Virus record (IMG/VR): IMGVR_UViG_3300045988_183062
Span: 14,512-78,511 of that record
Direction: 5' to 3' (one strand)
Source of the DNA: a virus
Length of the DNA stretch: 64,000 nucleotides
Positions 3,264 through 62,885 of the stretch are shown here, piece after piece (the first letter of the stretch is position 1; every line of letters starts with the position of its first letter). Below the pieces are notes generated by a model. The model did not search any database. It saw only the letters and a list, made by a program, of their open reading frames with translations, and had not been told where the DNA came from. Position numbers and translations under genes: made by a program.

Positions 3264-4601
3264 ATGAAATGTTTCTTGAAAAAGGCACTCGCGGTATGTC
3301 TCACGGCAACTACGCTATGTACATGCCTTGCAGGGTGCAAAAAGAAAGATGATGGCAGCGTATCGGACACTACGCCTATTCCGACACCGGCCATTGAAAG
3401 CACGCCTGAACCGTCTGCAAATCCGAACATTTACGGTGACGTTGACACATCAGGCGGCAACAAAATTCAAAACGGAAAGCTGGTTCTCACGAAGATTGAA
3501 CCTGCTGAGCCAAACAACTGCGCATCGAACGGCTATATGGAAGAAAAGAACCTGGATGGTACTTACCGCTATCAGGTCAAGGCGGAAACCGTTGCCGCCA
3601 AGAACCTTGTTCCGTATACGGATGCAAACGAAGCGGGTCTGAAAATCTTCTCTGGTCATACAGTCTATGTGCGTAAGACAGGCTTAGGCATTGGTGAGAT
3701 GCCTGAAGCTACGGTAGATGACTCCTCCAGTACAGAAGAAGTTATTACCGATACGACAACATCAACCGATACAAGTTCCGGCTACATTGACGAAAACGGC
3801 AATTATATTGAAGATGCCACTAATAGTAATGGAACAACATCTTCATCTACGCTTTCTGATACGGACCAGAAGTGCATTGTTTCCGGCGAGGAAGTATTTG
3901 ACCTTGACAACTACAGCGACGAAATCCAGTATCCTTCTGATTTCTCGCAGCTTCGCAAAGAGGGAACATGCGAGCGCCTTTACGTTTACCATTCGAAAGA
4001 GGAGTACGAACAAGCTCTCAAGAACCGCAAGAACGGTCAGGCTATTTTGACTGGCGAGATGGATGCGCCTATTAAAAGCGTCATCCTGAATGGTTCTCTG
4101 GTGCCCAAACTCAACTATACCATCAACAGCGACGGTCGCCTGTGTGTTTCTCTCCGTGCGCTGGCAGAGGCCTATGATTCCAATACACAGTATGACGATG
4201 TAGAGCATCTGCTTATTGTTCCTATCACATACGGTGAGCGCATCTATATCCCAGTCAAAGGCATTCTCCATAACGCCAGTGAGTATTACCAGATTGACAA
4301 TACAAACAACACCTTTGTGTTTACCAGCAAAAAACCGCCTGAGATTTGGACTGATACGTTCTCGCTCGCTACCACCAGTGATGTTGTGATGCCTGTCGAA
4401 GACATTGCCCGTATCCTTGGCTGGGATTTCTGGTATGGCGACAATGTCCTGAGCGTAGTTACTGATTCTCTCGACGACACGAAAGAAGAAAACATTCTGC
4501 TTCAGGAGCAGGATGTCGAAGAAATCGAAATTGATTTGAACGATTTACCTGATGTCGATAGTACGGCATCTGATTCAGAAAGTGAGGTGAGCGCATCGTG
4601 A
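3264..4601 (+). CDS. Surface lipoprotein (signal peptide with lipobox LAGC), Thr/Ser-rich linker
   Basis: N-terminus MKCFLKKALAVCLTATTLCTCLAGCKK; stop overlaps next gene start (ATGA at 4598). Confidence 0.65.
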   Translation: MKCFLKKALAVCLTATTLCTCLAGCKKKDDGSVSDTTPIPTPAIESTPEPSANPNIYGDVDTSGGNKIQNGKLVLTKIEPAEPNNCASNGYMEEKNLDGTYRYQVKAETVAAKNLVPYTDANEAGLKIFSGHTVYVRKTGLGIGEMPEATVDDSSSTEEVITDTTTSTDTSSGYIDENGNYIEDATNSNGTTSSSTLSDTDQKCIVSGEEVFDLDNYSDEIQYPSDFSQLRKEGTCERLYVYHSKEEYEQALKNRKNGQAILTGEMDAPIKSVILNGSLVPKLNYTINSDGRLCVSLRALAEAYDSNTQYDDVEHLLIVPITYGERIYIPVKGILHNASEYYQIDNTNNTFVFTSKKPPEIWTDTFSLATTSDVVMPVEDIARILGWDFWYGDNVLSVVTDSLDDTKEENILLQEQDVEEIEIDLNDLPDVDSTASDSESEVSAS

Positions 4602-6769
4602 CCAAATGGAACGAACTGAAGGTGAAGTTCTCTCTTCTTTCTAAAGAGGAGAAACTGGTCATCTTGTTCTGCTGCTCGTTTGTTGTTTCTCTTATCCCGG
4701 CGGGATTCATTGCGGCGGTATTTGCCGGAGAATGGGATGCGGGATTTTTCCGTAAGCTGTTTCTTAGCATTACAACCGGATATGGCATTATCTCGACTTT
4801 GATTTTCACTGCTGCCATTACATTTGTCATCGTGCTTCTTTCTCGGAAAAATACGGACCTCAACTCGGCAAAAGAAGTTGATGACCGTGGCATGATTACC
4901 TCCAATGCTGGTACTTACGGAACAGCAGAGTGGATGTCAGAGGACGAAGCCAAAAAGGTTTATGAGGTTGGCCCTGTTGAAGATGTGACGGGTACAATTC
5001 TTGGTCAGTTTACGACCGATGGCGAAGAAGTCATTGCTTTGCCGTATGAACCGACTGGCAACCGCAACCTTATCCTTATCGGACCTCCGGGCTCTGGCAA
5101 GTCGTTTGGCTATGTTCGTACTGCTGTGTTCCAGTCTATCGTACGCGGTGAGTCTGTAGTCGTTACTGACCCGAAGGGTGAAATTCACAATGATATGCGG
5201 AAATTACTCGAAGCAAACGGCTATAAGGTAAAGGTATTCAACCTCATCAACCTTGACCTTTCCAATGCCTGGGACTGCGTACAGGAAATCTATGACCCCA
5301 TTACGGGCAACATTGACGACCAGCGTGTTATTGCGTTCTGTAAGACCGTTATTGCCAATACAGGCGGTGGTGCAAACAGCAAGGGCGACCCGTTCTGGGA
5401 GAGTTCGGAAGAAAACTTGTTCCGTGTAGCCGTTTCTTACTGCGCCTATATGCGTGAGACGACCCTTATCAAAATCTATGAGCGCCGCACCAAAGAACTT
5501 CTTACGCAGCTGCCGTTCATTTCGGAAGAAGATGGCAAGGCACTGGTCGAAGCTGTTACAAATCCTGAATCTGCGATGGTGGACCGTCGCCGTGTTGTCG
5601 AGTACCTTGCCAAGAATCTCTATGGCGAGGAAGAAGGAGAGAAGAAGCTGCTGGCTTGGGAGGAAGACGCACCGACCAGCAACATTTCCGACATCTACAA
5701 CGCTCTGATGCACAATGACCTGAACTCTTGGGAAGAAAACTTCAAGAGCGTACCTATGAATCCCCCCGCCGCGTCTGCCTGGGCTGTATTCAAAGGCATG
5801 GGCGAGCGCGTACAGCCTAACATTGTCGGTGGCCTGAACACTCGTTTGCAGTTGTTTATGACCTTTAAGGTTCGCCGCGTTATCAGTAACGATGACATCC
5901 GCCTGGCAGACATTGGCGCTGAAAAGACCGCTCTGTTCCTGATTATCTCGGACGATAACGCATCCATGCAGCTGCTTTCTTCTCTGCTTCTGAGCTTCCT
6001 GTTTAAGGACCTGAAAGAGGCATTCGATGCCGTTGGCGGCGATGGTCGTATCCCTGTAAACGTCATTGCGGACGAGCTGGCAAATACCGGTGTCTGGCCC
6101 AACTTCGAGAAGACGATTGCTACCGCTCGTTCTCGCAAGATTGCAGTTTCCCTTATCTTGCAGAGCTTGCCGCAGTTGACGCAGTTGTATGGCGAGGAAA
6201 ACGCCGAAACCATCATTGGCTGCTGCAACACCATGCTTGTGCTGGGGTGCAACGATAAGTATACGGCCGAGTACATCTCCGACAAGAGCGGCATCGTTAC
6301 GATTCGTGCCAAGAGCGTGAGCGATTCCAGAGCAAATTCCGTTGGTTATCGCGGCGCTATGCAGGGATATTCTCTCAGTGAAGGCGATGGTAAACGCAAC
6401 TTGATGAACCCCGATGAAGTTCAGCACCTTGGCAAAGAAGAGATTCTGATTATGACAAACGGTCAGAACCTGCTGAAAGCCAAGCGCTTTGGCTTTATCC
6501 ATCATCCGCTGTTCTCCGACCCGCACTTTGTTCCGACACGCTGGTCCGAACTGCCTAAGACGGTTGACCTTTATCCCGATGCTCGTAAGCATGATGCTCT
6601 GGAGTCGCTGGTAGGTGACATCCAGCGCCAAAAGGAAGTCAATACGGAAATTGCGCAGAGACGTTCGGAAGTGCGTATGAATCCTCGTATGAGAAAGAGC
6701 GACCTTATCGGAAACGATAAAGTTCCTTCCAAGAAGAACGCTTTTGCAGACAAAGCTAAAAAGAAATAA
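4598..6769 (+). CDS. Type IV coupling protein, TraG/VirD4/TcpA-like ATPase
   Basis: N-terminal TM helices; Walker A LIGPPGSGKSF; Walker B-like hhhhDE (VIADELAN); size and context between T4SS genes. Confidence 0.8.
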   Translation: MTKWNELKVKFSLLSKEEKLVILFCCSFVVSLIPAGFIAAVFAGEWDAGFFRKLFLSITTGYGIISTLIFTAAITFVIVLLSRKNTDLNSAKEVDDRGMITSNAGTYGTAEWMSEDEAKKVYEVGPVEDVTGTILGQFTTDGEEVIALPYEPTGNRNLILIGPPGSGKSFGYVRTAVFQSIVRGESVVVTDPKGEIHNDMRKLLEANGYKVKVFNLINLDLSNAWDCVQEIYDPITGNIDDQRVIAFCKTVIANTGGGANSKGDPFWESSEENLFRVAVSYCAYMRETTLIKIYERRTKELLTQLPFISEEDGKALVEAVTNPESAMVDRRRVVEYLAKNLYGEEEGEKKLLAWEEDAPTSNISDIYNALMHNDLNSWEENFKSVPMNPPAASAWAVFKGMGERVQPNIVGGLNTRLQLFMTFKVRRVISNDDIRLADIGAEKTALFLIISDDNASMQLLSSLLLSFLFKDLKEAFDAVGGDGRIPVNVIADELANTGVWPNFEKTIATARSRKIAVSLILQSLPQLTQLYGEENAETIIGCCNTMLVLGCNDKYTAEYISDKSGIVTIRAKSVSDSRANSVGYRGAMQGYSLSEGDGKRNLMNPDEVQHLGKEEILIMTNGQNLLKAKRFGFIHHPLFSDPHFVPTRWSELPKTVDLYPDARKHDALESLVGDIQRQKEVNTEIAQRRSEVRMNPRMRKSDLIGNDKVPSKKNAFADKAKKK

Positions 6770-9735: not shown

Positions 9736-12444
9736 ATGTTTAGAAAGAAAAACAAACAGCAAGCTGTTCCGAATGGCGTTGTTGGGGACAGCTTGGAAAG
9801 CGTTCGTCTGACAAAGAAAGAGCGTGAAGAGATTGCCAACGCCGAACGTAAGCGTATCGACAAAGAGATGCAAGCCAATGCAGACCGGTATCAAATCGTT
9901 CGCAGTACACAACGCATCATTCCTGTTCAAGATATTTATAACGGCGTAATCATTACTAAAGACCACCGTTATGTGAAGATTCTTGAGTTTCGACCCATCA
10001 ACTTCGGTTACATGGATGCCGAGACACAGAACCGCATCATCTCACTCTTCTATCAGACTTTCAAGGCTGTTCCGGTCAACATCCAGTTCAAGACCTTCGC
10101 CCGTAAAGCAGATGTAGAGAAGACGATTGCTACAGTCACTTCCTATTATCGGGAAGAGACAAACATCAAACGCAAGCGGATGCTGAAAGCTTATATTGGG
10201 TTGCTTCGCAAGACGGCATTGTCCGTTGGCATCACGCGCCGCTTCTTTATCATCATCGAGTTTCAGCGCACCATCAGCAATGATGGCTCTAACTTTAATA
10301 TGGTTGTGGCGGACCTGAACGCAATGGCTGCCAACGTACGTTCCCACATGGAACAGTGTGGGAACATCTTTATCCCGGCGCTTGGTGACAGCAGCCGCAA
10401 CGAAGATGCCGGTATACACCAGCTGTTCTATCAGATGCTGAACCGTCGCAAGAGTGAGACGATTACGTTCCACGACCACGTTACGCCCATCATTGAACGC
10501 TATACCGAAGCGGATAAGAACGGCGTAAAGACCTCTCTGAATGCCACGGAATTGATTGCGCCCGACTGGATTGATTTTACCCATTATGACTATATTGTCA
10601 TTGATGGAAAGTTCTACACCTTCGCCTATATCCCGTCCACCGGCTATAATCAGCGTGTCTATGCTGGTTGGATTGCCACCTTCGTCAACGCTGGCGAGGG
10701 CGTTGATATGGATGTTTTCTTCGAACATCAGTCACGGGAAGCAGTCTACAACAAAATCAGTACGCAGCTTCGTTTGAGCCGTGCCAATGCAATGGATAGC
10801 CATGATACCGACTCGGATTATCATGCCCGCATGGAAAAGATTTCTTCCAGTGAATACATGCTGAAAGGTCTCTCCAGCGGTGAGGAATTCTATTACATGA
10901 GTATTCTTATCACCGTTGTTGGTGATAGTTTGGATGAGCTGGAATACAAATACAATTCCCTTGAAAAGCGCGTTAAAGGCCAGGGCATGAAGATTCGCCG
11001 TGCGAACTTTATGATGGAAGAGTGCTTTGAGTCTGCATTGCTTCCTCTTGGTAAGCTCCATAAGGACATCAAGCGCCGGGCACAGCGCAACGTACTGACC
11101 TCTGGTGTAGCATCTTGCTATCCGTTCATTTCCTTTGAAATGCAGGACCCTGATGGCGTTATGATTGGTACAAACCGTGCCAACAACTCCCTTGTCACTA
11201 TCGACATGTTCGATACAGACGTTCACGCCAATGCAAACGCTGTTATCCTCGGCTCTTCCGGTTATGGCAAGACCTTTACCGCACAGCTCTTTGCATTGCG
11301 TCTGTCTGAGATGGATACGCAAGTATTCGTCATCTCTCCGCTGAAGGGCTTGGAAGACTATGGCGGCGGATGTAAGGCGGTTGACGGTCAGTTCATCAGT
11401 ATGGACCCGTCTTCCATCAATAGCATCAACATCATGGACATCCGCGTGCCGGACGATGCGGATGCTAAAGAACTGGATGACTACGAGTCTACTGGTTCTC
11501 TGCTTACAAAGAAAATTCACACCATCAAGTCCTTCTTGCACTTGGTCGTTAAGGATATGACGCAGGAAGAGGAACAGCTTATTGATACGAGTCTTTACAG
11601 ATGCTATAAGGACTTCGGCATCACCAATGATAACGAATCGATTCTCGATAAAGAACACGGCGGTTATAAAAAGATGCCTCTGCTGGAAGACCTCCAAAAA
11701 GAGATGCAGAATGTTCCTGAACTCCATCGCATCTGCAATATCCTGAACCCGCTGATTACAGGTTCTATGGCATGCTACAACCGTCCCACGAATGTTGACC
11801 TGAAAGCAAAATACATCGTGTTTGACTTCAATGGCATGAAAGGCGCAATCCTTACAATGTCGATGTTTGTTGTTCTTGACTTTGTCTGGACCAAAATTAA
11901 AGAGGACCGTACGAAGCGCAAGGCCGTATTTATCGACGAGTGCTGGAAGCTGATTGGCACCGACTCGAACGAAATGGCAGCAGAGGACGTTGTAGAAATC
12001 TTCCGTACGATTCGTGCTTACGGTGGTTCGGCTTTCGCTATGACGCAGGACATCTCTCAGTTCTACGAGTATAAAGGCGGCAAGTATGGTAAGGCAATCA
12101 TCGGTAATGCTGACACCAAAATCATCATGCACCTTATCCCGTCTGAAGCGCAGGCATTGCAGTCGGCCATTCAGTTGACTGATGCGGAGATGGAAAATGT
12201 CTCCAACCTGCAACGTGGTCAAGGTCTGGTCTGTGCCGCTTCCGCCAAGCTGTTCGTTGACTTTGTTGCCGCACCTTATGAAAAGCAGGAAATCACGACA
12301 GATGCAAAGAGCTTCTATTTGCAAGAGAAAGCCCTCAAAGAGAAGCAGCACAGAGAAGAACAGGAACGCCTGGCTGCTGAAAACGCCAAAGGGGGGTCCG
12401 ACTCTAATAGCAATGACGAGGATTTGCTGAATGTGACATTCTGA
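9736..12444 (+). CDS. VirB4/TraE/PrgJ/TcpF-family conjugative ATPase
   Basis: Walker A ILGSSGYGKTF, Walker B AVFIDECWK, ~900 aa, follows PrgI-like gene as in Tn916/pCF10 layouts. Confidence 0.85.
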   Translation: MFRKKNKQQAVPNGVVGDSLESVRLTKKEREEIANAERKRIDKEMQANADRYQIVRSTQRIIPVQDIYNGVIITKDHRYVKILEFRPINFGYMDAETQNRIISLFYQTFKAVPVNIQFKTFARKADVEKTIATVTSYYREETNIKRKRMLKAYIGLLRKTALSVGITRRFFIIIEFQRTISNDGSNFNMVVADLNAMAANVRSHMEQCGNIFIPALGDSSRNEDAGIHQLFYQMLNRRKSETITFHDHVTPIIERYTEADKNGVKTSLNATELIAPDWIDFTHYDYIVIDGKFYTFAYIPSTGYNQRVYAGWIATFVNAGEGVDMDVFFEHQSREAVYNKISTQLRLSRANAMDSHDTDSDYHARMEKISSSEYMLKGLSSGEEFYYMSILITVVGDSLDELEYKYNSLEKRVKGQGMKIRRANFMMEECFESALLPLGKLHKDIKRRAQRNVLTSGVASCYPFISFEMQDPDGVMIGTNRANNSLVTIDMFDTDVHANANAVILGSSGYGKTFTAQLFALRLSEMDTQVFVISPLKGLEDYGGGCKAVDGQFISMDPSSINSINIMDIRVPDDADAKELDDYESTGSLLTKKIHTIKSFLHLVVKDMTQEEEQLIDTSLYRCYKDFGITNDNESILDKEHGGYKKMPLLEDLQKEMQNVPELHRICNILNPLITGSMACYNRPTNVDLKAKYIVFDFNGMKGAILTMSMFVVLDFVWTKIKEDRTKRKAVFIDECWKLIGTDSNEMAAEDVVEIFRTIRAYGGSAFAMTQDISQFYEYKGGKYGKAIIGNADTKIIMHLIPSEAQALQSAIQLTDAEMENVSNLQRGQGLVCAASAKLFVDFVAAPYEKQEITTDAKSFYLQEKALKEKQHREEQERLAAENAKGGSDSNSNDEDLLNVTF

Positions 12445-14201: not shown

Positions 14202-15467
14202 ATGACAAACGAGCAAAGGCTTCTGTGTTATCTCTACAGTGTGGATTCCATTCAGCGCAGACAGCTTGTGATTGCACTGTCGGATATGCCGTATCAGAGC
14301 GTTACGCTGGCAGTACGAAATGCAGTCAAGCACGGCTATGTAGAGGTATTTCGCAAGGATGAATCTAACCATCTGCGTATAACGCCAGACGGGGTAAAGT
14401 ACATCCGCTCTACGGCTCGTGATGCGCTGGATGGGCAAAAGCGAGCTACTATGAAGCGGAGGCTCAAGGGTGAAAATGGCAGGCGGCTGAACCGTATGGA
14501 AGTAGTAAGCTGCATGTGTCGAGCGGCAGGCATCAAACTCGCAAAGGAAGAACATATCCGTCTTGAAAATGTTCTGAATGCAGATGCGGATGACTACGCA
14601 AGATTCATGGACGACTACTTCTACGACAAAGGTCTGCTGTTTCTCTCTGACGAACTCTCTACAACCATCAAGGCTGAACAGACAGTTGGCGAGGAATACA
14701 CAACTGGCATGAGCCGTCTGGTAGGAGTGATAGTAAACTGCAAAGGAATCTTCTACGTTTACTGCACGCTGGACAGGTTGATGCGTTGGATTATCTCCTA
14801 TGAGCGCCGCAGAGTCGCAGCTATATCCAGGCTCTTTGAGAGCAGTGACGCAGCAAAAGCCAATGATGATTTTGCTGAAGTGTGTGCGTCTGTACCCAAA
14901 AGCGTCATCATTGGAAAGACTTGCGCCATGATTCCCAAAATCATCACAGGCAACAAGTACGGCAAGGTAGTCGAGAACGCAAGCAGAAGCACTATAACGG
15001 ATAAGCTGATGACTCTTGCGAATCTCGAACAGGTGTACGCATGCAACTACTTCGTTCCAACCAACACGCTCGGCGTAGAACTTCTCTCCAGAACAGTAAC
15101 GCTAACACGAAGCGACCTAAACAGTATGATTGAGATGTGGCTTTCAGAAATGACTGAACGATACACAACTGTTTCATCGCGAGAGTATGTAGAAGCCTAC
15201 ATCGAAGACCAAGAAGATAAGACGCTCATCTTTCCCATCATTGAGCTTGAAGAGCTTGTATTCCAAAAAGCAAGTAAAGAGCGCTATCACATTGTATGTG
15301 AAAGAGGAACGCAAGACGGAATCAGCCGAGTTATGGGCAAAAAACTCATTGACTTCAAAGATATGAACAACACGCCTATGCCTGCACACAAATATGACGA
15401 CTACGGAATCCGCCGTGATGGCATTAACCCGCTAACTCATTCTGGGTATTGGGAGGAAGAACAATGA
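14202..15467 (+). CDS. Hypothetical protein with N-terminal winged-helix-like segment (possible DNA-binding/replication-initiator-like)
   Basis: RBS AGGTGA before ATG 14202; N-terminal region resembles wHTH (LLCYLYS..QLVIALSDMPYQSVTLAVRNAVKHGYVEV). Confidence 0.5.
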   Translation: MTNEQRLLCYLYSVDSIQRRQLVIALSDMPYQSVTLAVRNAVKHGYVEVFRKDESNHLRITPDGVKYIRSTARDALDGQKRATMKRRLKGENGRRLNRMEVVSCMCRAAGIKLAKEEHIRLENVLNADADDYARFMDDYFYDKGLLFLSDELSTTIKAEQTVGEEYTTGMSRLVGVIVNCKGIFYVYCTLDRLMRWIISYERRRVAAISRLFESSDAAKANDDFAEVCASVPKSVIIGKTCAMIPKIITGNKYGKVVENASRSTITDKLMTLANLEQVYACNYFVPTNTLGVELLSRTVTLTRSDLNSMIEMWLSEMTERYTTVSSREYVEAYIEDQEDKTLIFPIIELEELVFQKASKERYHIVCERGTQDGISRVMGKKLIDFKDMNNTPMPAHKYDDYGIRRDGINPLTHSGYWEEEQ

Positions 15468-27505: not shown

Positions 27506-27814
27506 TTAGCATAATACCGCGTCTCTGACATCCATGTAATCCCAGATGATGTCGAGCACTTTCTTTTTAGGGGTATCCTCCTCAAGTTGAGAGGCGTTCC
27601 GCAGGAGTTCATGCACAGATAAGCCAAGATACTCAGCAATCTGCTTCATCTGCGGATACGTCGCAAGTACACGGCCGCATAAAAACCTTTCTGCCTCGAC
27701 TTCCTGGCATCCGAGCAGGGAAGCAACAGAGGACACTGAAACATTCCGCTCTTCCATTTTCTGCCTGATATAAGCACCCAGCATTCGTGCATTTGGCACA
27801 AGAATCACCTCCAA
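27506..27814 (-). CDS. XRE/Cro-C1-type helix-turn-helix transcriptional regulator
   Basis: HTH segment VSSVASLLGCQEVEAERF; minus strand. Confidence 0.65.
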   Translation of the reverse strand: MEVILVPNARMLGAYIRQKMEERNVSVSSVASLLGCQEVEAERFLCGRVLATYPQMKQIAEYLGLSVHELLRNASQLEEDTPKKKVLDIIWDYMDVRDAVLC

Positions 27815-27820
27815 ATGAGG

Positions 27821-28204
27821 TCAAGCCTCCTCGTCAGGAGACTCAGTGTCTTCACTCGCCAGCTGACGCATAGCACGGCGGAACTCGACCAGCTCCTTCT
27901 TTGTCAGAGCGCTTGTAACCATAGCAGCGTAGAACTCCGGACGGCTCATAGCTGCGACAAAGGTTCTCGCATAGGTCTTACCTGCGCGGACCATACCATC
28001 TTCCTTAATACAGCCTTTCTTCATCAAGGAATTGATGATGGCGAAGATGGAACGCTCTTTCCAGAACAGGTCACCATTCTCTTTCACATGGTCAAGGATA
28101 TCCTGCTGGCACAGCGGCTTTTTGCTGTTCCAGAAAGCCTTCATAACGGTTTCCTCTGCGGGAGTCAAATGATACGGACGGGGCGCATGGCTGGAAGCTG
28201 CCAT
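27821..28204 (-). CDS. BlaI/MecI/CopY-family winged-helix repressor
   Basis: LTPAEETVMKAFW...DILDHV.. pattern characteristic of penicillinase-repressor family; minus strand, co-oriented with XRE gene. Confidence 0.7.
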   Translation of the reverse strand: MAASSHAPRPYHLTPAEETVMKAFWNSKKPLCQQDILDHVKENGDLFWKERSIFAIINSLMKKGCIKEDGMVRAGKTYARTFVAAMSRPEFYAAMVTSALTKKELVEFRRAMRQLASEDTESPDEEA

Positions 28205-28346
28205 AACAAACACCAACTTTCATTGTTATTCTGTAATGCTGATTTCAATTATACGGAATTGCGCTAATTCGTCAATATCGTCACTTTAATTATGAACGAC
28301 ATTGACAAAAGATGATAAATTGTCCAATTGACAGAAAGGAGCCTGT

Positions 28347-28903: not shown

Positions 28904-29030
28904 GTATGGCGGTTTACATTTTCACAGAAAATATCTCTTTATAGAATGAACTTATAAAGAAAGGAGGCAAGGACTCGGCCAACTACCACAAACTTGGAAG
29001 AAACGCAAATAAAGAAAGGACCTGTAAAAG

Positions 29031-29840: not shown

Positions 29841-30077
29841 TGTACACCATTCCTCTCATTTTCTATCCTCATTATACCATATCAGAACAAAACATGACAG
29901 TACATAGTGATTTGTTTACAAATGCTTCACTATACCTGAAAGCGAACACAGCATTAAGCTCGTCCCATAGTGGTCGGGCTTTTTTGTTGCCAAAACGCGC
30001 GAATTGGCTACAATATCTATTGCAATGGTTGTTACATTATGACTTTTCGCAGAAAATGATAGCAAAGGGGTGATTGA

Positions 30078-30584
30078 GTGACAACCGCAAAAAGAGTCAC
30101 AAGCCTTTCTGCAGCACTGTTGCTGGCAGCTCAGTTATTTGCTCCTTTTCTGCCTGCTGCTTATGCCGATGACGCGAAAGAAGCGGCAGAGCCCTTCATC
30201 GCAACGGCAGAGACTGCGATACAAAGCAATTCATCAGCAGATGAAGAGGAAGACATCTCGATTGAAAACGAAGATGGGGCCACGGCAGATTTCTTTGCCT
30301 GCATTAACGGCGACTGGGTAAAGGTAGGAAGTACAACGGACCTGCAAGGGCCCGAACATCTGGCTGGGCGAGAACGCTACTATCTGTCGGCCGAGCAACT
30401 GGAAGAAGTCTACGCGCCGTTTGGCTTTGATGCCGAGTCATTCTCAGGCGAGGAATACATCAACCAGGATGTGCTGGCAGCCTACAAAAAAGATTCTGCG
30501 GCGTATAAAGTGCTGGCGCTGACTACCTGCGCTTCGGATTACTCAAATGCTCGAACGGTCATCATTACTCTAATTCAAGAATGA
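30078..30584 (+). CDS. Secreted hypothetical protein (signal peptide)
   Basis: N-terminus LSAALLLAAQLFAPFLPAAYA; GTG/ATG start; RBS AAAGGGGTG. Confidence 0.5.
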   Translation: MTTAKRVTSLSAALLLAAQLFAPFLPAAYADDAKEAAEPFIATAETAIQSNSSADEEEDISIENEDGATADFFACINGDWVKVGSTTDLQGPEHLAGRERYYLSAEQLEEVYAPFGFDAESFSGEEYINQDVLAAYKKDSAAYKVLALTTCASDYSNARTVIITLIQE

Positions 30585-30725
30585 GTTGAACTTAAAAGTG
30601 CATCTCATTTCCAAAAAGATAGGAAAGCAGGCACATTTTGGGGTTGAGTTCCACAAACTGGGGCCTAAAAGTTGAACTTGTAACGGAACCGGCATACTAA
30701 ATGTGCCATAATTTTGTATTATATC

Positions 30726-30754
30726 TTGATTTTATATACCACATGTGGTATAAT
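30726..30754 (+). promoter_or_regulatory. Strong sigma70 promoter TTGATT-17-TGgTATAAT with embedded perfect 16-bp palindrome ATACCACATGTGGTAT (operator)
   Basis: Consensus hexamers, extended -10, palindrome occupies the spacer/-10. Confidence 0.7.
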
Positions 30755-30760
30755 ACAATA

Positions 30761-30973
30761 TAGAGAGCAAGGACAAAGACCCGACGGTGCTGTCGATGGC
30801 AGCCACGTAAACCGGGGCAGGGTATAGTGCCTGAGTTCTCACAAACTTTGCCGTCCCTCTCCGACGGTTCTATCTGCTTCCATGCAGTCACCTCGTTCCT
30901 TACATCCTTTCTTTATCCTTTCTTACGGACCCCGCTGCTTTCCCCGCAAAGAGCAGCGGGGGTTCTTTTTTGT
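30761..30973 (+). ncRNA. Candidate ~210-nt small RNA of unknown class (own promoter and intrinsic terminator, no credible ORF)
   Basis: Promoter at 30726-30754; terminator hairpin ccccgctgc..gcagcgggg + TTCTTTTTTG at 30929-30973; CU-rich 3' half (UCACCUCGUUCCUUACAUCCUUUCUUUAUCCUUUCUU) resembling anti-SD-type sRNA seed. Confidence 0.5.
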
Positions 30974-30989
30974 TCATCGAAATAATGTC

Positions 30990-31030
30990 TTGTGCATTCG
31001 TGCGAATTGCGTAGAATTAAAATTGTACAA
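30990..31030 (+). promoter_or_regulatory. Conserved-family promoter copy a (TTGTGC-16[..GTGCGAATTGCG]-TAGAAT)
   Basis: Member of 8-copy element family, see findings. Confidence 0.6.
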
Positions 31031-31261
31031 GCGGAATTGGGTTCCGGTGGGTCTTAACCTCTTCCTGCCGGTGTTTACGGTGTTGTTTTCTCTCACTCTT
31101 ACATGTTGTGTGGTCCGCTTGTATTCACCCCATCGGCTTTTTCCTGGGCCGGTGGTTCATATAAAAGGCTGTGGTTGCTTTTGCTTCCGCAGCTTTTTTG
31201 TTTGTATTCGCGCCTGCACAAAAGACAGGCATTGGTTGTGATGAGCGAAAGGAGTATGAAT

Positions 31262-32947
31262 ATGGCGCTTATCATCGGGATTGTAGCAGTCCTTATTATC
31301 ATCTTCGGCTTTCTGTGCTACAAGAAGGCCCCTCCGACGGAGGCTATCGTCGTGACCGGCTTTGGGTTGTCAAAGCCCAAAGTAGTATCCGGTAAAGGCA
31401 CGTTTGTGCTTCCTGTCTTGCAACGAGCAGACAAACTGAACATGCGGCTTCTGAAGATTGATGTCAAGACCCCGGAAACAGGCGTTAAGACTCAGAATGG
31501 TGTCAGCCTTTGGATTGATTCTGTTGTGACGATTCAGGTTTACAGTGAGAACTCCACTGTGTTGGACGATGAGGTCAAAGCATCTGGTCTGAAGGACGCC
31601 AAGGCGTATATCATGTCCCGCCAGCAGGCAGCTATCTCGAACTTCTTGGGCATGAACGAGCAGGGCATCAACGACAAGGTCAATGACGTTCTGCAGGGCA
31701 ACCTGCGTGAGATTGTCTCCGACATGACCGTTGACCAGATTCTGACAAACCGCAAGCAGATGGCACTGAGCGTCATTGAGAACGCTCGTCCAGACCTCGC
31801 CAAGATGGGCCTTGAGGTCGTGACCTTCAATGTTCAAGACATTAGGGACGCGATTGATGCACAGGGCCACAATCACGGTGTCATCGAAGCTATCGGCATC
31901 GAGCAGGAAGAACTGGTGAAGAAGCAGGCTGAGATTGCTCGTGCCCAGGCTGCTCGCGATGTGGCATGTGCCAAAGCAGATGCTGAGATGGCAGCGAACG
32001 CCAAGGAAGTTGAAGCCCAGACCGCTATCGCACAGCGCAACAACGAGTTGCAGCTTGCCAAGGCAAAGCTGAAGGCAGAAGCTGACAAGGCTGCGGCCGA
32101 CGCAGATGCTGCCGGTCGTATCCAGATGAACCTCCGTGCCAAGGAAATCAAAGAAGCTGAGGCTGACGCAGAGATTGCCAAGCAGAAAAAGATGGTTGAC
32201 CTTGCTGCGCAGGAAGCAGAAGTTCAGCAGCGTAAGTTGGACGCAGAAGTTCGTAAACAGGCTGATGCAGACCTGTACCGCCGTCAGAAAGAGGCGGAGG
32301 CCAAGAAGTACGAGGCTGAGCGTGCGGCCGAGGCTACCAAGTTCGCCAAGCAGCAGGAGGCAGAAGGCATCGAGATGGTCGGTAAAGCTGAGGCTGAAGC
32401 CATTCGCCAGAAAGGTCTGGCAGAGGCCGAAGCCATGAAACAGAAAGCCGAAGCCTACAAACAGTACAACGATGCGGCCGTGGCTGAAATGCTCATTAAG
32501 GTTCTGCCCGACATCGCCAAGAGCGTGGCTCAGCCGCTGTCCAGCATCGACAAGGTCTCCATCATCGGCGGCGATGCCTCCGGCGTATCCGGCGTTTCCG
32601 GTAACGTCCCGGTGCTCATGGCACAGACCATGCAGACGGTGAAGGAAGCCACCGGCATTGATATGGGCGAGATTGTTCGCGCCAATAGCATCCAGGCCAA
32701 GACGGACCGCAACATCCATATCGATGGTGTGGAGTTGGACGAGCCGAAAACTCACATCACCTCCGAGCGTGTCGAAGATGGTTGGATGTTCCATGAGAAG
32801 GACCCCATCACCGGTGAGGACAAAACTTCTTTCCGTCCCGATTTTACGGACGAGGAAAAGGCCATCATAGATGCTCACGCCAAGGCAGCTGAGAATCATG
32901 CTACCACCAACAAAACCAATCCGTATAAAAAGGGCTTCAATAAATAA
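31262..32947 (+). CDS. Flotillin/SPFH (band-7) domain membrane protein with long Ala/Glu/Lys-rich coiled coil
   Basis: RBS AAAGGAG before ATG 31262; N-terminal TM then SPFH-like core; EA-repeat coiled-coil typical of FloT/YuaG. Confidence 0.7.
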   Translation: MALIIGIVAVLIIIFGFLCYKKAPPTEAIVVTGFGLSKPKVVSGKGTFVLPVLQRADKLNMRLLKIDVKTPETGVKTQNGVSLWIDSVVTIQVYSENSTVLDDEVKASGLKDAKAYIMSRQQAAISNFLGMNEQGINDKVNDVLQGNLREIVSDMTVDQILTNRKQMALSVIENARPDLAKMGLEVVTFNVQDIRDAIDAQGHNHGVIEAIGIEQEELVKKQAEIARAQAARDVACAKADAEMAANAKEVEAQTAIAQRNNELQLAKAKLKAEADKAAADADAAGRIQMNLRAKEIKEAEADAEIAKQKKMVDLAAQEAEVQQRKLDAEVRKQADADLYRRQKEAEAKKYEAERAAEATKFAKQQEAEGIEMVGKAEAEAIRQKGLAEAEAMKQKAEAYKQYNDAAVAEMLIKVLPDIAKSVAQPLSSIDKVSIIGGDASGVSGVSGNVPVLMAQTMQTVKEATGIDMGEIVRANSIQAKTDRNIHIDGVELDEPKTHITSERVEDGWMFHEKDPITGEDKTSFRPDFTDEEKAIIDAHAKAAENHATTNKTNPYKKGFNK

Positions 32948-32989
32948 CTGAAGTTCTTTCACACAGTCCCTGCGGGGGCTGTTGCCGCT

Positions 32990-33030
32990 TTAAGAAGACA
33001 GCCTCCACGGGGCGAGCGGCGGGCAACGGG
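32990..33030 (+). repeat. GC-rich structured intergenic repeat, copy 1 (GCCTCCACGGGGCGAGCGGCGGGCAACGG)
   Basis: About 80% identical to 35530-35570; embedded in inverted-repeat hairpins, no T-run. Confidence 0.5.
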
Positions 33031-33080
33031 AAAGGCTCCTGGCGAATAGTCTTCAGAACGAAAAAGAAGGGGAGAAAGCC

Positions 33081-42825: not shown

Positions 42826-42885
42826 TGTCTTGAGGAGAACGGCTCGACCGCTCTTTCTTTTTACTATGCAGAAAGAGGTTTCAGC

Positions 42886-53815: not shown

Positions 53816-53893
53816 TGTACCCCGGTAGAACGCTTTACGTGTTTGCCGGGGTATTCTTTTTGTGTTGATACGTATTCTTGGAGGATTCAAACC

Positions 53894-62790: not shown

Positions 62791-62885
62791 GTCTTGCCCT
62801 TCGTATTCACAATTTCGCTTGAAGAGCGGACTTCCCACGCGGGAGGCCCGCTCTTTTTGTGTCAAAACAAAGGAGTGTATTTACC

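Follow-up and report, generated by a model that had tools for sequence, protein, structure and literature searches.

The window analyzed here is a stretch of 64,000 nucleotides (nt) from IMG/VR virus record IMGVR_UViG_3300045988_183062 (positions 14,512–78,511), and on its plus strand, to which all coordinates refer unless another strand is given, it contains a predicted transcript of ∼210 nt (RNA1, 30760–30972) that is very probably a real, conserved, and structured RNA gene outside any described family. The extent of RNA1 follows from promoter and terminator geometry, with the start placed 6–8 nt past the −10 element. The reading pursued below, to which we assign a probability of roughly 0.45, is that RNA1 is a stand-alone, trans-acting small RNA (sRNA) of the anti-Shine-Dalgarno (anti-SD) type. 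Under this reading, P1, a strong promoter of the constitutive sigma-A type, would produce an RNA that ends at the intrinsic terminator T1; a 5′ domain of four helices would probably serve for stability or as a protein handle, and two variable hairpins would link it to an unpaired pyrimidine tail. This tail, whose conserved core CAUCCUUUCUUU together with UCACCUC resembles the anti-SD end of 16S rRNA, would pair with purine-rich ribosome-binding site (RBS) regions of the GAAAGGA/GGAGG type in mRNAs of the element or of its host, and the pairing would block translation initiation on the targeted mRNAs. A dimeric repressor on a dyad overlapping the −10 element may gate the transcription of RNA1.

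The homologue set consists of 45 loci with 28 distinct sequences, which fall into two clades that are ∼70% identical. The window clade is made up of near-identical copies (L019–L028) and of variants that are ∼90% identical (L031, L039, and L040), and the second clade, found via a flotillin homologue and one degenerate DNA pattern, is made up of L045, L046, and ∼20 metagenome loci. Exact-pattern scans of viral contigs yielded, besides L031 and L167, chance matches within unrelated genes, and the matches to the promoter palindrome were likewise unrelated. Each metagenome contig carries one RNA1 locus, contigs of 170–390 kb included, and a covariance model found no second copy of the 5′ domain in the window or in the related loci L042 and L044. 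RNA1 is always the first half of a cassette in which a promoter (P2), a leader (RNA2), a terminator (T2), an RBS, and a variable first gene follow.

RNA1 has its own promoter and its own Rho-independent terminator, and both are conserved in position in the two clades, in agreement with a sequence-only reading of the window that had proposed a discrete unit bounded by these two signals. The −35 hexamer of P1 is TTGATT (30726–30731), replaced by TTGCAT at the same spacing in the other clade, and the extended −10 element, of the TRTGnTATAAT type, is TGTG-G-TATAAT (30744–30754), replaced by TATGGTATAAT in the other clade. A consensus scan gives 10 of 12 hexamer matches, a 17-nt spacer, and a TG extension, which bears out the near-consensus extended −10 promoter of the sequence-only reading. 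Promoter-like matches are common in this region (6 found vs. 2.5 expected), and the consensus match of P1 alone therefore proves little; the −35, the 17-nt spacing, and the TRTGnTATAAT element are all retained in the diverged clade. T1 (30930–30972) has a 12-bp stem with 8 GC pairs at 30930–30961 followed by UUCUUUUUU, the stem and T-run of a textbook intrinsic terminator as had been described, and it is kept in the other clade with a U-G replacement. Within the window clade, identity is 68–74% in the spacer that immediately precedes the −35 and climbs to 92–95% from the promoter onward. Between the clades, identity is 80% in the promoter, 87% in a 45-nt core of the 5′ domain, and 79% in the terminator, compared with 52% in the upstream spacer and 43% in the middle of RNA1.

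No protein-coding function is apparent in RNA1. The only sizeable plus-strand open reading frame (ORF) of the window clade, with a GTG start and 47 amino acids, is missing in the second clade, where no plus-strand ORF of at least 20 amino acids was found in RNA1, and indels break the frame in L026 (an 11-nt duplication) and in L031 and L039 (1-nt indels). The absence of a credible ORF noted in the sequence-only reading thus extends to the homologues, which have no ORF common to the clades and no conserved ORF that would make the region part of a protein-coding gene. A small protein encoded on either strand was also considered and rejected; no conserved small hydrophobic ORF is present. Searches of the whole window with Rfam 15 at the gathering threshold gave a hepatitis delta virus (HDV)-like ribozyme at 32984–33055 as the sole match and none at RNA1; a permissive scan of 30500–31350 returned only noise (E of at least 0.07, eukaryotic or viral families), and a scan of the second-clade copy L045 with an E-value limit of 0.5 returned nothing at RNA1. 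The absence of a match to a known riboswitch or RNA family, noted at first, is thereby confirmed at curated and permissive thresholds. Three further identities were rejected: a retron (no reverse transcriptase found among the scanned neighbor genes), a CRISPR-repeat mimic (no array or handle-like motif), and a 6S-like RNA (the consensus fold is not a 6S-type hairpin, and the Rfam 6S model has no match).

The 5′ domain (80 nt, 30763–30840) consists of four stacked helices supported by covariation and is closed by helix P0 (30763–30768 with 30835–30840), in which three pairs are changed on both sides between the clades (GC/AU, AU/GC, and CG/UA). Within the window clade, P0 changes from A-U to G-U in L031 and L039 and from G-U to A-U in L040. 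The conserved core (30779–30823) contains helix P1a (30779–30782 with 30820–30823), where the clades differ at pair 37-77 (CG or UA); helix P1b (30785–30788 with 30811–30814); and hairpin P1c (30789–30794 with 30798–30803, loop GAU), where pair 49-55 occurs as UG, UA, and CG and changes within both clades. The core also includes a 7-nt 3′ bulge, which is only partly conserved, and an internal loop (GA/GGGCA), which is invariant together with an AAAG upstream. In the alignment of the 5′ domain (A5), 96.3% of cells pair, vs. 33–46% when the 3′ partners are slid by 1–3 columns; five pairs are changed on both sides, and the observed covariation score was reached by 0 of 500 shuffles. The unconstrained minimum-energy fold of L045 is exactly the covariation-supported structure, and that of the window sequence differs from it. 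The full predicted RNA1 folds at −74.5 kcal/mol (z = −3.56 vs. shuffles). A long-range minimum-energy fold of the window RNA1 was rejected as the biological structure, given that two of its pairs are broken in L040 and that the second clade is unable to form it; pair 42-123, which seems compensatory in this fold, is accounted for better by a P1c pair together with a change in a loop. The evidence for the fold of the 5′ domain, as predicted from these alignments, is good but not overwhelming, and the covariation analysis of homologous regions that had been suggested at the outset supports the helices of the domain through compensatory changes. The three short helices originally picked out fared differently: GCUG/CAGC corresponds to P1c and has covariation support, CCGUC/GACGG holds as a local hairpin (30851–30867) in the window clade only, and GGCA/UGCC is unsupported, the other clade having GGCA…UACC.

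These compensatory changes also bear on the view that the region has no function as RNA and owes its conservation to a boundary of recombination or to a signal in the DNA itself, for instance a protein-binding site or a structure of transferred single-stranded DNA. Within the window clade, the flotillin gene next to RNA1 is conserved at least as well as the RNA1 region, and the element is conjugative, with structured regulatory DNA lying upstream of establishment genes on other plasmids (EGeRS1, pLS20; PMC8708921). The changes nevertheless keep helices of the plus strand and pass through tolerated G-U intermediates, which are valid in RNA and not in the complementary strand, and the promoter and terminator are rightly placed in a clade that is only 43–52% identical in neighboring non-functional segments, which makes a purely DNA-level role very unlikely. 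Another view takes the 5′ domain as the functional part of RNA1: it would act as a binding site or as a decoy, either for a small ligand or for a protein such as a regulator or RNA-binding protein encoded on the element, and the tail would be secondary. The core is the most conserved part of RNA1, its invariant internal loop and AAAG are typical of a recognition surface, and the pyrimidine loops of RNA2 (CCUCUUCC in one hairpin and UCCUG in the other) make a common pyrimidine-binding factor conceivable. This view is judged unlikely: the domain has no similarity to any Rfam riboswitch or protein-binding RNA, no recognizable RNA-binding protein is encoded among the scanned neighbor genes, and no repeated motifs for protein binding like the GGA loops in CsrB-type sponges are present.

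Two hairpins separate the 5′ domain from the tail. Hairpin 2 (30850–30868) has the stem CCGUC/GACGG and the loop CCUCUCC in the window clade, and a hairpin of different sequence stands at the same place in the second clade, with 8 bp, a CUCC-containing loop, and a compensatory change from C-G to U-A in L056, L057, L058, and L080. Hairpin 3 (30874–30887), obtained in the constrained fold, has the stem CUGC/GCAG and the loop UUCCAU; a G-C pair becomes G-U in L040, and a longer hairpin occupies the site in the other clade. The pyrimidine-rich tail that follows (UCACCUCGUUCCUUACAUCCUUUCUUUAUCCUUUCUUACGGA, 30888–30929) is the CU-rich 3′ half noted from the window sequence, and it is predicted to be unpaired in the consensus fold. 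The 12-mer CAUCCUUUCUUU (30903–30914) and CACCU are identical in both clades, and the 12-mer has a probability of 0.96 of being single-stranded in the consensus fold and of 0.87 in L045 folded without constraints. UCACCUC and UCCUUUCU are two halves of the 16S rRNA 3′ end (GAUCACCUCCUUUCU), and because the tail matches both halves, it looks like an anti-SD mimic.

An 11-nt unit (AUCCUUUCUUU) occurs twice in the RNA1 tail. In L026 (3800–3830, corresponding to ∼30903–30925 of the window), the 11-nt unit (ATCCTTTCTTT) stands in three tandem copies, which suggests that the tail tolerates, or exploits, a change in copy number. The tandem repeat, together with the promoter and terminator, loosely recalls ToxI-type loci, and toxin-antitoxin systems are common on plasmids, which raises the notion that RNA1 is an antitoxin RNA, either of type I (antisense to a small toxin mRNA) or of type III (a repeat RNA that neutralizes a toxin). 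The repeats of ToxI-type loci are ∼35 nt vs. 11 nt here, with only two or three copies in one clade and no such repeats in the second; the gene that follows downstream varies and encodes no toxin of the ToxN/AbiE type, and the lack of a conserved small hydrophobic ORF on either strand applies here as well. An antitoxin role is disfavored and appears extremely unlikely.

The search for targets gave its most suggestive result in the 5′ untranslated region (UTR) of a gene encoding 129 amino acids, which contains two exact ATAAAGAAAGGA sites (28954–28965 and 29009–29020, plus strand), each a 12-nt perfect complement to the tail. Nowhere else on the plus strand of the window is a 12-nt complement of the RNA1 tail present. 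The site at 29009–29020 adjoins the start codon and is invariant in the window-clade homologues, and the distal copy varies. As a target of RNA1, this gene is suggestive in the window clade and not conserved. The target prediction put forward with the sequence-only reading, which looked to the GGAGG-type RBSs of the region, did not yield a target with complementarity conserved across the clades when the window and the fetched loci were scanned.

Several observations weigh against an anti-SD sRNA acting in trans. In the window-wide duplex scan, the 5′ UTR of the 129-amino-acid gene ranks only ∼17th, and the gene was not detected in the fetched second-clade loci, although those keep the same seed; no conserved target was found across the clades, and the 7-bp pairing of the tail with the cassette RBS GAAAGGAG is generic. 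Accessibility is also at issue, as the 12-mer is only 0.39 unpaired in the unconstrained ensemble of the window sequence, where the tail is base-paired to the purine-rich 5′ end in the minimum-energy fold, which exceeds the covariation-supported fold in stability by 6.6 kcal/mol. The anti-SD-like tail of the earlier description has support from its conservation between clades and its predicted single-strandedness in the consensus fold, and not from the unconstrained ensemble of the window sequence itself. In addition, there are two clades only, so most double changes derive from one split, which leaves the covariation statistics weak in independent events. Finally, RNA1 is never found without the P2-leader cassette, which could mean a role in cis; the label “stand-alone” given to it initially is apt with respect to its own promoter and terminator and not with respect to its genomic occurrence, which is always together with the promoter-leader-terminator cassette that follows.

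The cassette begins with P2 (30990–31017; TTGTGC, a 16-nt spacer with the motif GTGCGAATTGCG, and TAGAAT), which is conserved in both clades and substantiates the proposal that the next gene has its own promoter. The leader RNA2 (31023–31200) is structured, with a 10-bp closing helix, two hairpins, and T2 at 31168–31200 (fold z = −3.48), and its consensus structure has compensatory pairs between the clades at 24-47, 123-144, and 129-138; RNA2 has no Rfam match. The cassette RBS GAAAGGAG and the flotillin start lie at 31247–31264, and GAAAGGAG is invariant in both clades. The first gene after GAAAGGAG encodes flotillin in the window, a 276-amino-acid protein in L045, and a 130-amino-acid protein in L167, and an IscB insertion takes this position in L046; RNA1 therefore travels with a portable promoter-leader module and not with a particular protein. 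A tandem duplication as the origin of RNA1 and RNA2 was rejected, with an alignment score below the shuffled mean. Pairing between RNA1 and RNA2 was likewise rejected, since the best duplexes (−23.8 and −23.5 kcal/mol) are close to the shuffled mean best (−22.5 and −21.1 kcal/mol), the strongest shuffled duplexes (−28.6 and −30.2 kcal/mol) exceed those observed, and the sites are not conserved.

This arrangement is the ground for a reading in cis, in which RNA1 is a part of flotillin operon control, with P1 as a tandem promoter and RNA1 plus T1 as an attenuator or insulator that would set how much transcription from P1 or from upstream gets to P2, the leader, and the operon. P2, RNA2, and T2 always come immediately after RNA1, and conservation extends as one unit from the P1 −35 to the RBS; RNA2 is itself structured with a terminator before the RBS, so that termination control is clearly used in the region, and several other P2-type promoters in the window also have leader terminators. 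An antiterminator that competes with T1 was not found by inspection in either clade, the best alternative partner of the T1 5′ strand being 6 bp (GGCAGC of P1c) vs. the 11–12-bp T1 stem, and this absence favors a discrete RNA over an attenuator. Moreover, the linker from the 5′ domain to T1 is 90–125 nt of poorly conserved sequence (43% identical between the clades), a complete promoter (P2) stands between T1 and the gene, and the spacing from T1 to P2 varies from 17 to ∼80 nt between the clades. On balance, a cis-acting role appears unlikely. A broader reading holds that RNA1 and the P2-leader-terminator belong together in one portable control cassette with two RNAs, of a new kind, that would serve cargo or establishment operons on Gram-positive conjugative elements. 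In it, a protein or metabolite would be sensed by the conserved 5′ domain of RNA1, or the RNA1 tail, as an anti-SD mimic, would act with the pyrimidine loops of the leader, and termination at T2, or translation of whatever gene follows GAAAGGAG, would thereby be set; we regard this proposal as decidedly unlikely.

A trans-acting anti-SD sRNA would have its closest analogues by mechanism in the C- or CU-rich anti-SD sRNAs of Firmicutes, namely RoxS/RsaE, FsrA, and the 3′ hairpins of S. aureus RNAIII. Such RNAs have their own promoter and terminator, a length of 100–500 nt, a structured body, and unpaired pyrimidine motifs that pair with the RBS. RNA1 resembles them in its own promoter and terminator, its size, its structured body, and a pyrimidine-rich motif that is predicted to be unpaired in the consensus fold. 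It differs in having no sequence or structure similarity to them (the Rfam searches being negative), in its motif, a long linear U/C tract before the terminator in place of CCCC in hairpin loops, and in being encoded by a conjugative element, whereas those sRNAs are core-genome genes. The plasmid RNAs Anti-Q/Qs of pCF10, RNAIII of pIP501, and RNA II of pAD1 par are, like RNA1, small, plasmid-borne, equipped with their own promoter and terminator, and placed beside a terminator-containing leader, and they control plasmid genes. These plasmid RNAs are counter-transcripts or have long repeats in common with the target, whereas RNA1 lies on the same strand, upstream of the leader, and its complementarity to the adjacent leader is no better than that of shuffled sequences. 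Riboswitches and leader attenuators likewise place an intrinsic terminator after a folded, conserved 5′ domain, and RNA1 differs from them in the lack of an exclusive antiterminator, the long variable linker, the full promoter between terminator and gene, and the lack of an Rfam aptamer match.

By genomic setting, the nearest counterparts lie on Gram-positive conjugative plasmids, namely their regulatory RNAs and the EGeRS sequences (PMC8708921). EGeRS1 is present in several copies per plasmid and has no strong sigma-A promoter (pLS20 family; PMC8708921). As with EGeRS1, the region described here is a conserved, highly structured, non-coding block of 400–600 bp before accessory or establishment genes, and as with EGeRS2, the element has an element-wide promoter family with one common conserved motif (PMC8708921). 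RNA1 differs from EGeRS1 in being single-copy, with one copy in the 64-kb window, in its near-consensus promoter and own terminator, and in the lack of sequence similarity. RNA1 is a member of none of these specific families and is a candidate for a new Rfam family. If the anti-SD reading is true, RNA1 would be a rare case of an sRNA from a conjugative element of gut Clostridia, and an entry to how such an element tunes its own translation or that of its host. Nearly all genes of this widespread gut element are of unassigned function. RNA1, being conserved and having covariation support and a near-consensus promoter, is among its few directly studiable parts, and RNA1, an eight-member promoter family, and the leader terminators outline a regulatory architecture for the element family.

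The promoter of RNA1 carries a perfect palindrome (TATACCACATGTGGTATA, 30735–30752) over its spacer and extended −10, which is a plausible candidate operator. The sequence-only reading had correctly described it as perfect and as lying over the spacer/−10 and had given its length as 16 bp; it is in fact 18 bp. It is the sole perfect palindrome of at least 16 bp in the window, where block shuffles predict 0.87 perfect palindromes of 16 bp and 0.17 of 18 bp, and is therefore only mildly unusual window-wide and notable mainly for its position; no second copy was found within the window. The dyad symmetry is 9/9 positions in most of the window clade, 8/9 in L040, and 6/9 in the L045-type clade, in which positions 8 and 11 have changed together, and symmetrically, from C:G to T:A, and the dyad core common to both clades is TAC-N8-GTA. 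The right arm of the palindrome is the Gram-positive extended −10 element TRTGnTATAAT and hence constrained regardless, and it is the left arm that creates the dyad. A BlaI/CopY-family gene (27821–28216, minus strand) lies 2.5 kb upstream and is syntenic in both clades (60% identity), and an XRE-type gene (27506–27799; called in homologous loci) near RNA1 is absent from the second clade. BlaI/CopY-family boxes are of the TACAnnTGTA type; the spacing of the TAC-N8-GTA dyad differs from these boxes, and nothing ties the BlaI/CopY gene to the site.

The P2 motif GTGCGAATTGCGTANAAT has 8 same-strand matches in the window vs. 0.16 expected, giving eight promoters with the motif GTGCGAATTGCGTAnAAT at 29997, 31000, 38142, 42090, 42787, 48002, 53777, and 62739. 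The set looks like an element-wide regulon that a single repressor or sigma factor may control, with a logic resembling that of the EGeRS2 establishment promoters on plasmids of the pLS20 family. Transcripts with UUGUA(C)AAG-like or GUGUAC-like 5′ ends would begin at five of these promoters (31000, 42787, 53777, 62739, and, more loosely, 48002), and the 8-mer GAATTGCG also occurs between the BlaI-like and YpsA genes (28254–28264). A terminator-like hairpin with a T-run precedes the first-gene RBS at several of the motif promoters (31168–31200, ∼42826–42862, ∼53822–53862, and ∼62822–62850), which suggests that attenuation or antitermination may control many cargo operons.

The host of RNA1 is one family of conjugative elements of 200–390 kb in gut metagenomes, and we assign the carrier to human-gut Clostridia and to the large conjugative type. 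A VirD4-type coupling protein (4598–6769), a VirB4/TraG-like ATPase (9736–12444), and an M23 peptidase identify the window as part of a conjugative element. The conjugation genes lead into a long same-strand gene run, nearly all of it without a Pfam match; the genes upstream of RNA1 encode an ImpB/UmuC protein, the BlaI/CopY-family repressor, the XRE-type protein, a YpsA/SLOG protein, and a 168-amino-acid secreted protein, and the flotillin (SPFH) gene (31262–32947) is the first gene downstream. For the neighboring 168-amino-acid protein, the index lists 854 blocks; the contigs concerned typically measure 209–577 kb and come from human-gut assemblies, in which the element is very common. No DNA match to the element is present in PLSDB or in phage collections, and the closest coupling proteins in Clostridium plasmids have at most 33% identity to that of the element. 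A flotillin-anchored search of reference genomes showed that chromosomal flotillin homologues in Gemmiger, Subdoligranulum, Oribacterium, and Parolsenella have only the gene in common and not the upstream region, and RNA1 is hence specific to the element.

Gene exchange and insertions are seen around the cassette. In L027 (6031–6507), a gene of the AcrVA2-like anti-CRISPR family replaces the gene after flotillin in a copy that is otherwise identical, which fits the idea of a variable anti-defense or establishment island. An IS110-family transposase is inserted right after T2 in L039 (5181–6538), and similarly, an IscB-like RRXRR+HNH gene is inserted right after T2 in L046 (1214–2476). A stand-alone HEARO/omega RNA (88.7 bits) is found at L042 2683–2943 in the leader upstream of flotillin, L042 being a related element without RNA1. 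The HDV-like ribozyme at 32984–33055 (plus strand; Rfam RF02682, 47 bits vs. a threshold of 44) lies just past the flotillin stop and before the next ORF, and scores of 47 bits in L019, 43.5 in L040, and 29.4 in L045 at the same position point to a conserved intra-operon ribozyme. Upstream of the RNA1 promoter, a direct repeat GTTGAACTT occurs at 30585–30593 and 30670–30678 (plus strand), and a stretch between the two repeats (GCATCTCATTTCC…) is partly kept even in the second clade, L042, and L044.

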